Assembly: GCF_000007985.2 (NCBI RefSeq)
Contig: NC_002939.5
Coordinates: 1,140,001-1,172,000, forward strand
DNA from: Geobacter sulfurreducens PCA
GTDB taxonomy: Bacteria; Desulfobacterota; Desulfuromonadia; Geobacterales; Geobacteraceae
Direction: 5' to 3'
Length of the DNA stretch: 32,000 nt
This document shows positions 2,835 through 11,026 of the stretch, piece by piece; positions within the stretch are counted from its first letter, which is position 1, and every line of letters starts with the position of its first letter. The position numbers and the translations under genes were made by a program. The notes under the pieces were generated by a model. That model searched no databases and was not told the DNA's origin. It was given only the letters and a program-made list of their open reading frames with translations.

Positions 2835-3239
2835 TCAGGGGTCGGGTACCACCTTGACGGCCACCCGTCGATGACGCGGTCCGTCGAATTCACAGAGGTA
2901 GATCGACTGCCAGCTGCCGAGCAGCAATTTCCCCTCCACAATGAAGACTGTCAGCGAGGTTCCCGTGAGGGTTGATTTGATGTGTGCGTCCGAATTTCCT
3001 TCCGCGTGGGTGAAGTACGGATCGATGGGGACAAGCCGATCGAGAAAGTTGACCATGTCGCGCTGAACAGCCGGGTCGGCCCCCTCGTTGATGGTGATTC
3101 CCGCCGTGGTGTGAAGCACGAACAAGTGGCACACGCCGTTCCGGACGGCGGCGGACCGCACCTGCTCCTGCACCGCGGACGTGATGTCGATCATGTCGGT
3201 TCGCGTTCTGCTCTTGAATTCCAGGTGCCTGATCATCAC
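2835..3239 (-). CDS. yjbQ: YjbQ/UPF0047 family protein (secondary thiamine-phosphate synthase-like)
   Basis: 134 aa. Motifs HTTAGITINEGADP, DPYFTHAEGNSDAHIKS and GSWQSIYLCEFDGPR match the YjbQ family as I remember it. Confidence 0.85.
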   Translation of the reverse strand: MMIRHLEFKSRTRTDMIDITSAVQEQVRSAAVRNGVCHLFVLHTTAGITINEGADPAVQRDMVNFLDRLVPIDPYFTHAEGNSDAHIKSTLTGTSLTVFIVEGKLLLGSWQSIYLCEFDGPRHRRVAVKVVPDP

Positions 3240-5104: not shown

Positions 5105-5980
5105 ATGTCCATACTCATCAACAGCGATTCGAAAATAGTCGTTCAGGGCATAACCGGCCGCAGCGGTCTCTTCCATACCCAGCAGTGCCGGGACTACGGC
5201 ACCAGGATCGTGGCCGGCGTCACCCCCGGCAAGGGGGGGATTCACATCGAAGGGATACCGGTCTTCAACAGCGTCGAGGAAGCGGTCAGGTACACCGGGG
5301 CCAATGTGTCCATGATCTTCGTCCCGCCGCCGGCCGCGGCCGACGCCATCCTTGAGGCGGCCGACGCGGGACTGGAACTGGCGGTCTGCATCACCGAAGG
5401 AATCCCGGTGCGCGACATGGTTCCGGTGAAGCGCATCCTCCAGGAGAGCCGGACCCGGCTCGTGGGACCGAACTGCCCTGGCGTCATCACTCCGGGCGAG
5501 TGCAAGGTGGGGATTATGCCCGGCTACATTCATAAGCCCGGCAAGATTGGTGTGGTCTCCCGCAGCGGCACCCTCACCTACGAGGCGGTCAAGCAGATCA
5601 CCGAGGCGGGGCTCGGTCAGTCCACCTGCGTCGGCATCGGCGGCGACCCGATCATCGGCATGAACTTCATTGACGTGCTCAAGCTCTTTAACGAGGACAA
5701 GAACACCGAGGCGGTCTTCATGATCGGTGAGATCGGCGGCACTGCCGAGGAAGAAGCGGCCTACTGGATCAAGGAAAACATGAAGAAGCCGGTGGCATCC
5801 TTTATCGCCGGCGTCACCGCGCCTCCGGGCAAGAGGATGGGGCATGCCGGCGCCATCATCACCGGCGGCAAGGGAAAAGCCGAGGACAAGATCCGGACCC
5901 TTTCCGAATGCGGGGTGGTGGTGGCCACCAGCCCCACCAAGATGGGCGTCGCCATGCTGGAAGCCCTGGGCAAGGGCTAG
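5105..5980 (+). CDS. sucD: succinyl-CoA synthetase alpha subunit
   Basis: 291 aa. Motifs [19 protein letters not shown] and the GHAGAII phosphohistidine loop. Confidence 0.97.
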
Positions 5981-6004
5981 GCGGTTCCGTTACCCTGTGG
6001 CTGA

Positions 6005-6036
6005 GCCCGTACCCTCGCGGGGGTACGGGTTTTTTC
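6005..6036 (+). terminator. intrinsic terminator of sucCD
   Basis: cccgtaccc-tcgcgg-gggtacggg followed by tttttt, 25 nt after the sucD stop. Confidence 0.75.
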
Positions 6037-6043
6037 GTTCATT

Positions 6044-6895
6044 TCAGGAGGCCAGGGGCATGACCTCGGCCGACGGCACGATCCTGTCACCATCCTCGCT
6101 GACCGTGTGGGCGCTGTGCTCGATCAGTTCGTAGAGGTGCCGGTACTTGGCCACCTCCATGGGCTGGGCCGTTTTCCTGCCGTAATACTTGCCCGGATGA
6201 GCGAAGACATCGGTGGCAACGCGATCGTCGTAGAGGGCGAAGTCGAAAGAGCTGTTGGTGTCGCGGCCGATGATCTCGCCCGCTGCCGGCAGCTCGTCCC
6301 GGTACACGATCCGGATGTCGATGTCGTCGCGGTAGTGGCTGAGGAGCACCTTCTGCACCTCCGGCTCTCCAAGTTCTTCCCGGTTGACGACAAAGATCCG
6401 CCTGATCCTCACGCCGCGGTCCAGGGCGCGCAGGTTTGCCTGGTAAAAGTTGACCAGGGCTCCCCTGGTCCACCATCCCGCCATCAGCGGATCCACGGCA
6501 CGTATTTCGCGTACCGCCTGATCGGACAGTTTCGCCCCTTCCAGGTAGAACTCATTCTCGTCCAGAGGAATGTACCCTTGCTGAAGAATCGTGATGGTGC
6601 GTCGGGTGCCGGCGATCAGCTCATGAGCCTTTGCCAGGCATTCGGGGTCGGCGATCCCGGCCATGGCAAAGGGGATTTCGTGGGCCTGCTGGTACTGTTC
6701 CACTAAGTGTGAGCGGTTTTTTTCGATCTCTTCGCGGATCAGGTAGGTGCCCAGGGCCAGCAGGATGCCGATGCCGAAGATCACGTAGGCGGCCTGCTCG
6801 TAGTGGAGCACCAGGTGGAAGAAGATCGCCAGTCCCGATCCCACGAGAAATTCGAGCCACACGGCCATTTCCTGTATCTTTTTTCCCATATTCAT
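6044..6895 (-). CDS. uncharacterised membrane-anchored protein (2 N-terminal TM helices plus about 200-aa soluble domain)
   Basis: 283-aa ORF with a strong SD (aaggagga, 7 nt before the ATG). TM segments are AVWLEFLVGSGLAIFFHLVL and AAYVIFGIGILLALGTYLI. I recognise no catalytic motif. Confidence 0.75.
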   Translation of the reverse strand: MNMGKKIQEMAVWLEFLVGSGLAIFFHLVLHYEQAAYVIFGIGILLALGTYLIREEIEKNRSHLVEQYQQAHEIPFAMAGIADPECLAKAHELIAGTRRTITILQQGYIPLDENEFYLEGAKLSDQAVREIRAVDPLMAGWWTRGALVNFYQANLRALDRGVRIRRIFVVNREELGEPEVQKVLLSHYRDDIDIRIVYRDELPAAGEIIGRDTNSSFDFALYDDRVATDVFAHPGKYYGRKTAQPMEVAKYRHLYELIEHSAHTVSEDGDRIVPSAEVMPLAS

Positions 6896-6921
6896 GGTGT
6901 TTCCTCCTTAATCGTCGCCAC

Positions 6922-6973
6922 AAAAAAAGCCGGGTCGCCTGAATATCGATCTCGATAATTCGGCGACCCGGCT
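6922..6973 (-). terminator. intrinsic terminator (12-bp stem plus U7) directly upstream of the SD of the 283-aa gene; riboswitch expression platform
   Basis: Minus strand reads agccgggtcgcc-(22-nt loop)-ggcgacccggct then ttttttt. The SD and ATG follow within 25 nt. Confidence 0.75.
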
Positions 6974-7036
6974 GTCTCGGTGAGACCCTGTGGGCTTTCC
7001 GTCCCATCCTCGCGGATGGTTTAGTATTGTCGTGTA
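6922..7036 (-). promoter_or_regulatory. GEMM-I-type (c-di-GMP / 3',3'-cGAMP class) riboswitch with intrinsic-terminator expression platform
   Basis: Minus strand reads ACUAAA-CCAUCC-GCGA-GGAUGG-GACGGAAAGCC-CAC-AGGGUCUC-ACC-GAGAC-AGCCGGGUCGCC. This matches the remembered GEMM-I core: GCAAA-CC(stem)-GNRA-(stem)GG-GACGCAAAGCC ... GGGUC ... GACAGCCGGGUNGCC. The 3' core strand doubles as the 5' arm of the terminator. Confidence 0.7.
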
Positions 7037-7169
7037 TCTGCGGCAGTGTTGACGCTATGTCTGAAGTGAGCTGACCTTAGCGCATTTCAATTCGAAAAGT
7101 CAAGTTTCAAATGTTATTGATTTGAATCGATAATGCTGTGATTTTGAAAATTAAAATTGTTGCCGATCG

Positions 7170-8525: not shown

Positions 8526-9287
8526 GTGAATGAACGAGTATGGGCAGTCAATGGGGGTACGATGGCGGTGAACTGGTGGACGTTGCGGATTCTGGTTGCA
8601 GTGGCCGCGTCGCTATGGCTGATTGCCGATGCTTCGGCCATGTCGGCCTTTGCCAGAAAATACGGCATGCAGTGTGATGGGTGCCATTCCAGGATTCCGA
8701 AACTCAATGAGTTCGGGACGGCCTTTCTCAAGAATGGTTTTGCCATCCCCGCCGGCGCGCATCCCCCGGTGTCGGCGGCCCGCAAGCCTGAGAGCGAAAT
8801 AGAGCCGATGGCATCGACACCGGTCCCTCGCGAATCTCGTGAGCCGGCCGCCAGCGCCGCTCCGGCCGGGAGTCCCGAAGGGGTGGTCGCCTCCGCCCCG
8901 TCAGCGGAACCGCTTCCGGAACAGACGGCTACCGAGCCCCCTCCCCCGCCGCCCCCCATGGTGCTGTACAAGCTGAAGGCGCGGGACGGAAGCGCATATT
9001 ACACCGATAACCCCCGAGCCGCCGCTGACCTGCAGGAGCCGGCCGCAGCGCCGGCACGTAAGGCCGCCGGCAGGACGCACGGCAAAGCGGTGCCGGAAGC
9101 GAAGGCCCCGGCGCGCCGTCGGTCGCCGGTTGCGCCGGATGCCGCCCCGCCACTCTTTCGGAGTTTTTCTGAATGCATGGAACATCAGCTGGTTGATACG
9201 CCTCCGCCTGGCTCCGCCGGTGAGATGATGGACCTGCTCACTGAGGCGGAGCGGGTCTGTGCCGGCTATCCAGCGGTAAAACGCTGA
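8526..9287 (+). CDS. secreted monoheme c-type cytochrome-like protein with Ala/Pro-rich linker and DUF4124-like module
   Basis: Signal peptide WWTLRILVAVAASLWLIADASA. One CxxCH site (YGMQCDGCHS). Low-complexity A/P/E region. LYKLKARDGSAYYTDNP resembles the DUF4124 motif. The true start may be the ATG at 8562. Confidence 0.7.
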   Translation: MNERVWAVNGGTMAVNWWTLRILVAVAASLWLIADASAMSAFARKYGMQCDGCHSRIPKLNEFGTAFLKNGFAIPAGAHPPVSAARKPESEIEPMASTPVPRESREPAASAAPAGSPEGVVASAPSAEPLPEQTATEPPPPPPPMVLYKLKARDGSAYYTDNPRAAADLQEPAAAPARKAAGRTHGKAVPEAKAPARRRSPVAPDAAPPLFRSFSECMEHQLVDTPPPGSAGEMMDLLTEAERVCAGYPAVKR

Positions 9288-9440
9288 GTGCCGCGCTGGG
9301 AACGCCCTGCAGTGACCTCCGGCCATATGCCCGCTTCGAGGGGCATGACGCCGCATGTTTTTCATAGTATGGTGCCGATGCCTCTCGTTTGGTTCCTTCG
9401 CATCCCCTGCCTTATGTGCAGGCTGCGCTCCCCGGCGGTT

Positions 9441-9456
9441 TGGCATGGGCGTTGCT
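9441..9456 (+). promoter_or_regulatory. sigma54 (-24/-12) promoter TGGCAT-N5-TTGCT
   Basis: tTGGCATgggcgTTGCTg matches TGGCAC-N5-TTGCW with correct spacing, 69 nt upstream of the first minor-pilin gene. Confidence 0.6.
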
Positions 9457-9524
9457 GCACATGGTAGTGGGGTATTGTTGCGGGGCAAGATGAAGTCAAA
9501 AAGACGGAAATCGGGGCCAAGGAA

Positions 9525-9941
9525 ATGACGAAGTCGGGAGAGATGATCAAGGGATATCTTTCGAACCGGCAGGGCATGAGTCTCGTGGAGATGCTCATTG
9601 CGCTGCTGATTCTGGTGGTCGGCTTTCTGTCGGTCATCATGGTCCTCTGGATGTCGATCAATTCCGGCAGGTTCACACGCGACATGACCATGGCGGCCAG
9701 TCTCGGCCAGGATATGCTGGAGCGGTTCACGGCCCGCAGTTATGGTTCGCTGCCTGCCACCGGGGGGGCTTTTGAACCCTATACCACCGCCAATGCCTCA
9801 GCAGTGGGGTATGTCAGGGAGGTGAAGGTGGAGGACAATGTCCCTGATGTGGGGATCAAGACCGTTACGGTCAGGGTCAGGTGGAACAGCAACGGCCACG
9901 AAAGATCGAGAACGTTCACCATGCTGAAGCGGGACTACTAG
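9525..9941 (+). CDS. pilV: type IV pilus minor pilin, PilV-like (prepilin N-terminal cleavage/methylation domain)
   Basis: NRQG/MSLVEMLIALLILVVGFL has Gly at -1 and Glu at +5 followed by a hydrophobic helix. 138 aa. Confidence 0.8.
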   Translation: MTKSGEMIKGYLSNRQGMSLVEMLIALLILVVGFLSVIMVLWMSINSGRFTRDMTMAASLGQDMLERFTARSYGSLPATGGAFEPYTTANASAVGYVREVKVEDNVPDVGIKTVTVRVRWNSNGHERSRTFTMLKRDY

Positions 9942-9949
9942 AGGCGGCG

Positions 9950-11026
9950 ATGACGGTATTCCGGTCTGGTGGCACAAAGGGGTACAGCCTTGTTGAGGTG
10001 CTGGTGGTGATCGTGATCTTCGCGATTATCACGGCCGGCGTTTCAGCAGTGTTCCTTCGCGGGCAGCACGAATACCTTGTTCGGGAGGAGGCCGTCCGGA
10101 TGCAGCAGCAAGCCCGGCTGGCCATGACCGCCATGGAGCGGGACCTGCGGATGACAGGCTATGGCCTGAGCGATGTGGGTAATCTGAAGATACGGTTCTA
10201 CAACAAGGGGGTCGGCACGGTTACCGACAATTACTACGCGGTTGCCGAGGCAAACGTCTTCGGCTCCCCCAAGGTGGCAGTGCCGGCGGCGGATACCGAT
10301 TCCATCGCCATCCGTTATTGCGATCAGCCCTCCGACGCGATGCCGGACATTACCCTGTCAGGAAGTGTCCCGCCGCCATCGTCGAGCAATACCCCGGTCA
10401 GCTCGACCGACGGGATTAACGCTAACGACCTGATCATCATCTACGATCCCACTGATCTTGCCAAGTACGGCTCAATCCTGATGGTAACGGATACGACGTC
10501 CGCCGGCGGATTGTCGGTCAAACACGGCAACGGAGCGGGCGACGGGCCATTGGCCTCCTTCTACAATCCGTCCAACCCTGCCGTCAACCTGTTTCCACCG
10601 GGCGGCTATCCGGTCGGAGCCAAGGTGCTGAGACTGGCCCCCGAGGCCCTCCGCACCGTGAGGTACTACGTGGATGCCGGCATGAACCTGCGCCGGCAGT
10701 CACAGGCCGGCCTGACCGGCGCAGTGGAGGAGCGGCCGGTCGCCTCGGGGATCGAGGATTTTCAGGTCAAATATTACTTCCGGGATGGTACGTGGCTCGA
10801 TGCCCCCGTCACCGACGATCCCGACCATGACGTCGACAAGCTGCGGGCGGTGCGGATCAGCATTATCGTGCGAACGGCAAAGCCTGACCGACAGTACGGG
10901 GCCGGAGATTCGATCCGGCTCACCGGAGACGACGGCAACGGTGTGGCCCGGAGCGGGGGAGGGTACCGCCGGATGGTGATGAGCACGACAATCTCGCTGC
11001 GAAACCTTGCCGTCAGGGATATGTGA
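9950..11026 (+). CDS. pilW: type IV pilus assembly protein PilW-like minor pilin
   Basis: GGTKG/YSLVEVLVVIVIFAIITAG prepilin motif. The size (358 aa) and the position after PilV fit PilW. Start chosen at ATG 9950 rather than the track's 9881. Confidence 0.75.
   Translation: MTVFRSGGTKGYSLVEVLVVIVIFAIITAGVSAVFLRGQHEYLVREEAVRMQQQARLAMTAMERDLRMTGYGLSDVGNLKIRFYNKGVGTVTDNYYAVAEANVFGSPKVAVPAADTDSIAIRYCDQPSDAMPDITLSGSVPPPSSSNTPVSSTDGINANDLIIIYDPTDLAKYGSILMVTDTTSAGGLSVKHGNGAGDGPLASFYNPSNPAVNLFPPGGYPVGAKVLRLAPEALRTVRYYVDAGMNLRRQSQAGLTGAVEERPVASGIEDFQVKYYFRDGTWLDAPVTDDPDHDVDKLRAVRISIIVRTAKPDRQYGAGDSIRLTGDDGNGVARSGGGYRRMVMSTTISLRNLAVRDM

Follow-up and report, generated by a model that had tools for sequence, protein, structure and literature searches.

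GSUR3005 in the GSU1060 5' leader of Geobacter sulfurreducens: very likely a GEMM-Ib (3',3'-cGAMP) riboswitch and transcriptional ON-switch

The GEMM-Ib subclass of riboswitches is defined by an adenine that replaces G20 (A14 in Gs1761) and pairs with the A-alpha base of 3',3'-cGAMP, while C92 pairs with the G-beta base (PMC6140456). Among the closest described systems, the pilM riboswitch of Geobacter metallireducens is a biochemically dissected cGAMP ON-switch of published sequence (PMC9262584 supplement), in which aptamer and terminator are mutually exclusive and the terminator sequesters the ligand-pairing C75 (PMC9262584). Gs1761, the pgcA riboswitch of G. sulfurreducens, is another GEMM-Ib member (PDB 4YAZ), and Vc2 of Vibrio cholerae, whose ligand is c-di-GMP, is the canonical GEMM-I riboswitch. 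Here, we have analysed a 32,000-nucleotide stretch of the G. sulfurreducens PCA genome (hereafter the window, to which all positions refer; every part of the riboswitch, its promoter and its gene lies on the minus strand). Our results make it very probable that the element upstream of GSU1060 is the GEMM-Ib (3',3'-cGAMP) riboswitch GSUR3005, which would act as a transcriptional ON-switch in the 5' leader of that gene.

Reading of the minus strand at 6915-7045 revealed the GEMM-I core motifs quoted in the original prediction. A search with Infernal against Rfam placed a match to RF01051 (c-di-GMP-I, GEMM-I) at 6959-7035 of the same strand (42.9 bits against a gathering score of 35, E=2.4e-5), which covered the full model (positions 1-87) and was the sole gathering-level Rfam match in the whole window; the predicted class was thus confirmed. 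In G. sulfurreducens, an annotated element, GSUR3005, precedes GSU1060 (eLife supplement, PMC6456294). Its published genome coordinates, transferred with an offset fixed by the GSU1060 start codon, correspond to window positions 6918-7038 and coincide with the aptamer/terminator anatomy described below. The genome annotation names it a 'cyclic diguanylate-responsive' riboswitch (PMC6456294 supplement), and the 13 GEMM-Ib riboswitch genes of G. sulfurreducens 'characterized for cGAMP binding' include GSU1060 (published Table S1). In vitro, 12 RNAs have been shown to bind cGAMP, and that of GSU1060 may be among them. A search of main-text literature for 'GSU1060' and 'GSUR3005' found no mention of either, and a full-text search for 12-mers of the sequence returned unrelated primers only. 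The riboswitch is already known, as an annotated element and as a published member of the GEMM-Ib/cGAMP regulon. The ligand identity, which had been left open by the original prediction, is accordingly 'not really open'.

A search of GTDB genomes with the 283-aa GSU1060 product identified 20 Geobacteraceae loci (56-67% identity), in nine of which RF01051 matched immediately before the ortholog with a score exceeding its gathering score. These nine orthologous leaders and that of the window were aligned (n=10). No aminotransferase, sucCD or cytochrome gene was found within 3 kb in any of the 20 loci; as far as the aminotransferase is concerned, the riboswitch is therefore linked to the GSU1060 ortholog rather than to the upstream gene. 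About half of the orthologs in these loci lacked the riboswitch, and ten such riboswitch-less leaders had no Rfam family match even at a permissive E-value. Four of them (L006, L009, L018 and L019) shared another conserved leader and promoter, TTGACGTTT..N..GATGTATGGTAACAAAA, located about 250 nt upstream of the ortholog start (position 3001 or 677) and also without a match to any Rfam family. Such a distinct leader suggests an alternative control of the GSU1060 gene in about half of the genomes. Additionally, the ortholog leader of Pelotalea chapellei (L014:2700-3000) contained a terminator-like hairpin, GAGCCGGTTCGC...GCGAGCGACCGGCTATTTTTT, and no GEMM aptamer; the 5' arm of this hairpin resembles the riboswitch strand AGCCGGGUCGCC, and it may be the remnant of a lost riboswitch. 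At one further locus (L004:2642-3001), riboswitch and terminator were located 283 nt upstream of the ORF, compared with 60-125 nt elsewhere, with a GC-rich and apparently structured insert between the terminator and the ORF.

Based on the RF01051 match, covariation and identity to pilM, the GEMM-Ib aptamer (P1, P1a, the P1b/P2 hairpin and P3) spans positions 6954-7038. Its P1 is bipartite: the outer 5' strand GAUA (7038-7035) pairs with UAUC (6957-6954), and an inner CG (7032-7031) pairs with CG (6962-6961). The aptamer hence starts at 7038, rather than at the edge of 7036 proposed originally. P1 closes a junction with two hairpins, and the arrangement is supported by covariation. The first, P1b/P2 (CCAUCC-GCGA-GGAUGG, 7004-7019), is capped by a GNRA loop, here a GYRA-type tetraloop at 7013-7010, and shows compensatory change at three of its six pairs. 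The second, P3 (6965-6996), is a short helix capped by an ACC triloop, as indicated by the covariance-model alignments, by covariation and by the similar architecture of pilM. Across the ten leaders, 93% of the alignment cells for the 27 pairs of the aptamer fold were paired and six pairs had compensatory changes; none of 500 shuffles was as good, and slid registers were only 30-45% paired. The A at position 20, the equivalents of A47 and C92, the C-G flip and the GYGA tetraloop were invariant in all ten.

The nucleotides expected to contact the ligand are consistent with the GEMM-Ib subclass. At the position of Vc2 G20, both covariance-model alignments placed A7025 (A14 of Gs1761) and not the G of the canonical c-di-GMP subclass, as the original prediction had suspected in pointing to Geobacter GEMM-Ib and cGAMP; this adenine confers specificity for the A-alpha base of cGAMP (PMC6140456). 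A6998 aligns with A47 of Vc2, which intercalates between the ligand bases. C6963, which also belongs to the 5' arm of the terminator, aligns with Vc2 C92 (C75 of pilM), whose equivalent makes Watson-Crick contact with G-beta of the ligand (PMC6140456). An adenine at the G20 position together with a retained C92 equivalent is what defines GEMM-Ib in that study.

Comparison with Vc2 further illustrates the subclass difference. The two RNAs have in common the three-helix junction, the GNRA-capped hairpin and the A47/C92 contacts, but Vc2 has G20 and an unflipped G21-C46 pair. In the covariance-model alignment of the window RNA, C7024-G6999 and U7023-G7000 replace G21-C46 and C22-G45, which explains why the core reads 'ACGG' rather than ACGC. 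Vc2 also possesses a GAAA tetraloop and an 11-nt receptor in a longer P3, whereas the 11-nt GAAA receptor was not present in P3 of the window RNA in these alignments and the 16-nt variable region of P3 in the Rfam consensus is reduced to 4 nt. The non-G at position 20, the ACGG and the short P3 without receptor had all been noticed at the outset and regarded as atypical. The features themselves are real, but they are the standard GEMM-Ib signature: they are invariant in the nine orthologous leaders and present in pilM, and therefore represent the norm of the subclass and not anomalies.

Alignment to published Geobacter GEMM-Ib sequences, which had been suggested as a check, supported the same assignment. 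The pilM aptamer, a biochemically validated member, is about 89% identical to that of the window, has identical core motifs and has the same layout, GAUA...ACUAAACC...GCGA...GGGACGGAAAGCC...GGGUCUC-NNN-GAGACAGCCGGG..GCCGAA.UAUC. Both RNAs contain the GAUA/UAUC P1, the A at the G20 position, ACU...GACGG, the GCGA loop, a short P3, AGCCGGG and the C92 equivalent. Their ON logic is also alike: in each, the 3' half of the aptamer serves a second time in the terminator, where the C that pairs with the ligand becomes sequestered. They differ in one extra nucleotide in the internal region of P1 of the window RNA, in the 3' half and loop of the terminator, which are unlike in sequence, and in the downstream gene, which is a pilus-assembly operon in the case of pilM and the uncharacterised GSU1060 here. 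Gs1761 belongs to the same genome and the same subclass as the window RNA, and its A14 has a corresponding role. The Gs1761 numbering A11/A14/A41 fits the window sequence when this is read from GAUACACGACAAUA. The crystallised Gs1761 RNA presumably begins GGUACACGACAAUACUAAACC, and we take it to be near-identical to the window RNA over the 5' half.

The aptamer is followed by an intrinsic terminator hairpin (6928-6973), which is supported by folding energies and by the orthologous leaders, in which 98% of the cells were paired and three pairs had compensatory changes. Its 12-bp outer stem, AGCCGGGUCGCC/GGCGACCCGGCU, pairs 6973-6962 with 6939-6928, and an inner extension pairs 6961-6953 with 6948-6941 around an AGAU loop, giving a hairpin of about 21 bp in total. 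A U7 tract (6922-6928), evident from the sequence and conserved in the orthologs, follows. The 12-bp terminator with U7 that had been proposed is therefore real (6973-6922). On the other hand, the P1 3' strand does not lie in the terminator loop, as had been thought, because this region is itself base-paired and extends the stem, with a GAUA mimic at 6948-6941 that captures the strand. The 5' arm of the terminator (6973-6962) consists of the 3' strand of P3, G6964, C6963 and the inner P1 strand; hairpin and U7 thus re-use the whole 3' half of the aptamer. Covariation of both folds and the folding energies point to an ON-type platform in which terminator and aptamer are mutually exclusive.

With regard to energies, the minimum free energy of the 131-nt leader was -63.3 kcal/mol (z=-8.1 against dinucleotide shuffles), and its structure was dominated by the long hairpin followed by U7. 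For the full 117-nt RNA, the aptamer secondary structure had -16.9 kcal/mol and the terminator fold -44.4 kcal/mol, with a minimum free energy of -52.5 kcal/mol. With an advantage of at least 27 kcal/mol for the terminator fold over the aptamer secondary structure, the default state should be OFF, that is, termination. It should be noted that a simple terminator scan did not call this terminator because its loop limit was 8 nt; the P1b hairpin, on the wrong strand, was all that it returned.

To place the riboswitch in a wider context, metagenomic data were searched with the core motif, which yielded 128 instances whose flanks could be used; a terminator built in the same way was present in 95 of these. 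The outer P1 was paired in 85 of 94 metagenomic GEMM-Ib instances and covaried (for example, GAUA/UAUC and GGUA/UACC). Seven metagenomic instances preceded further GSU1060 homologs. Many contigs (L023, L026, L036, L039, L041, L062 and L096) carried two to four tandem GEMM-Ib aptamers, 150-250 nt apart, in line with tandem arrangements that have been described in G. sulfurreducens.

Published RNA-seq data, generated by others, provide the dependence on the cGAMP synthase GacA, whereas class membership, the competing folds and the similarity to pilM come from the present analysis. Normalised expression of GSU1060 in the wild type, the esnD mutant (which lacks a diguanylate cyclase) and the gacA mutant was 115, 197 and 6, respectively (Hallberg et al., 2019, eLife, PMC6456294), corresponding to a fall of about 19-fold without GacA. 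The respective values were 52, 135 and 11 for GSUR3005 and 24, 32 and 24 for the aminotransferase gene GSU1061 (PMC6456294). The strongest drops of the regulon between the wild type and the gacA mutant are those of GSU2885 (85 to 3), GSU1945 (359 to 16) and GSU0183 (53 to 3) (PMC6456294). The drop of GSU1060 is comparable to these, and it is stronger than that of pgcA, which declines from 668 to 93 upon gacA deletion (PMC6456294). Thus, the ON behaviour that had been proposed on the basis of exclusive aptamer and terminator folds agrees with three lines of evidence: both folds covary in the ten leaders, the validated pilM mechanism matches, and the RNA-seq data show the expected dependence.

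Several other explanations of the element were considered. The RNA could be a canonical c-di-GMP-sensing GEMM-I riboswitch, or could sense both cGAMP and c-di-GMP in vivo, as might be supposed from its match to a model named 'c-di-GMP-I' and from the 'cyclic diguanylate-responsive' wording of the annotation. The G20 equivalent is, however, an A in all ten orthologs, and the collapse of GSU1060 without GacA together with its rise in the esnD mutant is the opposite of what a c-di-GMP ON-switch would show, which argues against c-di-GMP as the activating signal. Bispecific sensing keeps some weight because binding of both ligands, via a protonated A, is known for Vc2 G20A and for several natural GEMM-Ib RNAs (PMC6140456), and the OmcST riboswitch has also been reported to be sensitive to both. 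Taken together, we regard sensing of c-di-GMP, alone or in addition to cGAMP, as quite unlikely. Membership in the c-di-GMP-I-GGC variant class (RF03167), a class without an established ligand, has far less probability still. RF03167 did score higher than RF01051 in a permissive local scan (47.2 bits), probably because the short P3 architecture is shared, but this score is below its own gathering score of 59, and the G at position 20 and the G at the A47 equivalent that define the class are both A in the window. Such membership was hence rejected.

It might also be argued that the hairpin is a mere 3'-end terminator of the mRNA of the aminotransferase gene GSU1061, since hairpin and U7 lie downstream of that gene on the same strand, and that the GEMM-like sequence is a non-functional relic. 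However, the terminator is located about 200 nt past the GSU1061 stop codon, with a conserved promoter-like motif in between, and RNA of the riboswitch exceeds GSU1061 mRNA in abundance and changes upon deletion of gacA or esnD, which GSU1061 mRNA does not. Moreover, the aminotransferase gene was absent within 3 kb in all 20 orthologous loci, while nine keep riboswitch and terminator before the GSU1060 ortholog, and the aptamer and terminator folds both covary. The aminotransferase-terminator reading is effectively refuted, and we assign it almost no probability. A GEMM-Ib riboswitch that responds to cGAMP and controls GSU1060 remains the preferred interpretation.

Upstream of the aptamer, a putative sigma-70-type promoter could be read by consensus at 7074-7103, with a -35 element TTGACT (7103-7098), a spacer of 17-18 nt and a -10 element CTAAGG/TAAGGT (7080-7074). 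A promoter scan did not call this TTGAC-type motif; a cTTGACa-N17-TAnnnT motif was nevertheless present 35-45 nt 5' of the aptamer in all nine orthologous leaders. At the other end, the Shine-Dalgarno sequence AAGGAGG (6909-6903) and the ATG (6895-6893) of GSU1060 occupy 6893-6909, according to the sequence and the ORF. In the GEMM-Ib ON-switch that we propose, transcription would begin about 30 nt before the aptamer, at this dedicated promoter, and the aptamer (7038-6954) would fold co-transcriptionally. cGAMP would be held by A7025, pairing with A-alpha, by A6998, intercalating, and by C6963, pairing with G-beta, and the bound ligand would lock P1 and P3. Without ligand, the strand 6948-6928 would invade and pair with the P1 3' strand, C6963 and the P3 3' strand, so that the hairpin of about 21 bp with U7 would form and transcription would end 12 nt before the Shine-Dalgarno sequence. 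As the aptamer and terminator folds are mutually exclusive, ligand binding should therefore permit read-through into GSU1060. The transcription start, and the binding constants and kinetics of the GSU1060 RNA, are what we infer.

In addition to the aptamer and the terminator, the minimum free energy structure of the leader contained a possible long-range helix, in which 7045-7037 paired with 6924-6916 (and 7051-7054 with 6913-6916), so that aptamer and terminator were bracketed. The 3' strand (6916-6924) is an uncertain assignment. Such a helix would connect the sequence immediately 5' of P1 with that immediately 3' of the U-tract, and could be formed only in the read-through mRNA. Among the ten orthologous leaders, cognate flanks paired with -11.5 kcal/mol versus -8.4 kcal/mol for non-cognate flanks (permutation p=0.0002), and the bracketing helices differed in sequence among leaders (for example, a perfect 10-bp helix in L007). 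In the 95 metagenomic GEMM-Ib leaders, on the other hand, the effect was small (cognate -7.4 versus non-cognate -6.7 kcal/mol), with z below -2 in 4 of the 95, and among seven further GSU1060-type leaders the helix was seen in three (z of -1.3 or lower) and not in the other four. Based on these two sets of leaders, a bracketing helix as a general feature of GEMM-Ib was rejected, and given the small metagenomic effect and the three of seven further leaders, we do not include it among the conserved elements of the riboswitch. If true, it might come into play once the choice between termination and read-through has been made; it could, for example, close the leader, make the mRNA more stable or set the ligand free.

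The regulated gene, GSU1060, occupies 6044-6895 and encodes a product of 283 aa that matched G. sulfurreducens AAR34386.1 exactly; likewise, SucC of the window was identical to AAR34384.1. Searches of Pfam and NCBIfam with the GSU1060 protein gave no match. Its 931 homologs are all unnamed and without Pfam domains, and the listed ones are from Geobacteraceae. An AlphaFold2 model (pLDDT 78) comprised two N-terminal helices, which could be read as transmembrane, a long helix and a C-terminal domain. By Foldseek (E of about 1e-6), this C-terminal domain resembled folds of the PLD superfamily, namely Nuc, NucT, Zucchini, the TrmBL2 C-terminal domain and FAM83. The HKD motif (HxK...D) was not found in GSU1060 by eye, the sequence reading SFDFALYDD. 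We see a small chance that either the extra helix 7045-7037/6924-6916 exists in GSU1060-type leaders, or GSU1060 is a membrane-anchored, HKD-less PLD-fold effector of cGAMP-controlled surface or metal-oxide physiology.

With respect to the neighbouring genes, a GC-rich hairpin of 13 bp, flanked by runs of T and A, was observed at 6003-6032, between the convergent genes sucD (ending at 5980, plus strand) and GSU1060 (ending at 6044, minus strand). It is probably a shared bidirectional terminator, in which case GSU1060 would be monocistronic. Divergently from the aminotransferase gene, the plus strand at 8526-11026 contains GSU1062, which encodes a cytochrome c with one heme (CDGCH motif), and two minor pilin genes, pilV-1 and pilW-1, with N_methyl and PilW Pfam matches. 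In the published RNA-seq data, GSU1062 (10, 13 and 10 in the wild type, esnD and gacA mutants, respectively) and pilV-1 (17, 21 and 19) were GacA-independent.

The riboswitch itself adds nothing new, since its class has crystal structures and its regulon has been measured. What remains of interest is the gene that it regulates: GSU1060 is among the most strongly cGAMP-dependent transcripts of G. sulfurreducens and a recurrent target of GEMM-Ib riboswitches across Geobacteraceae.
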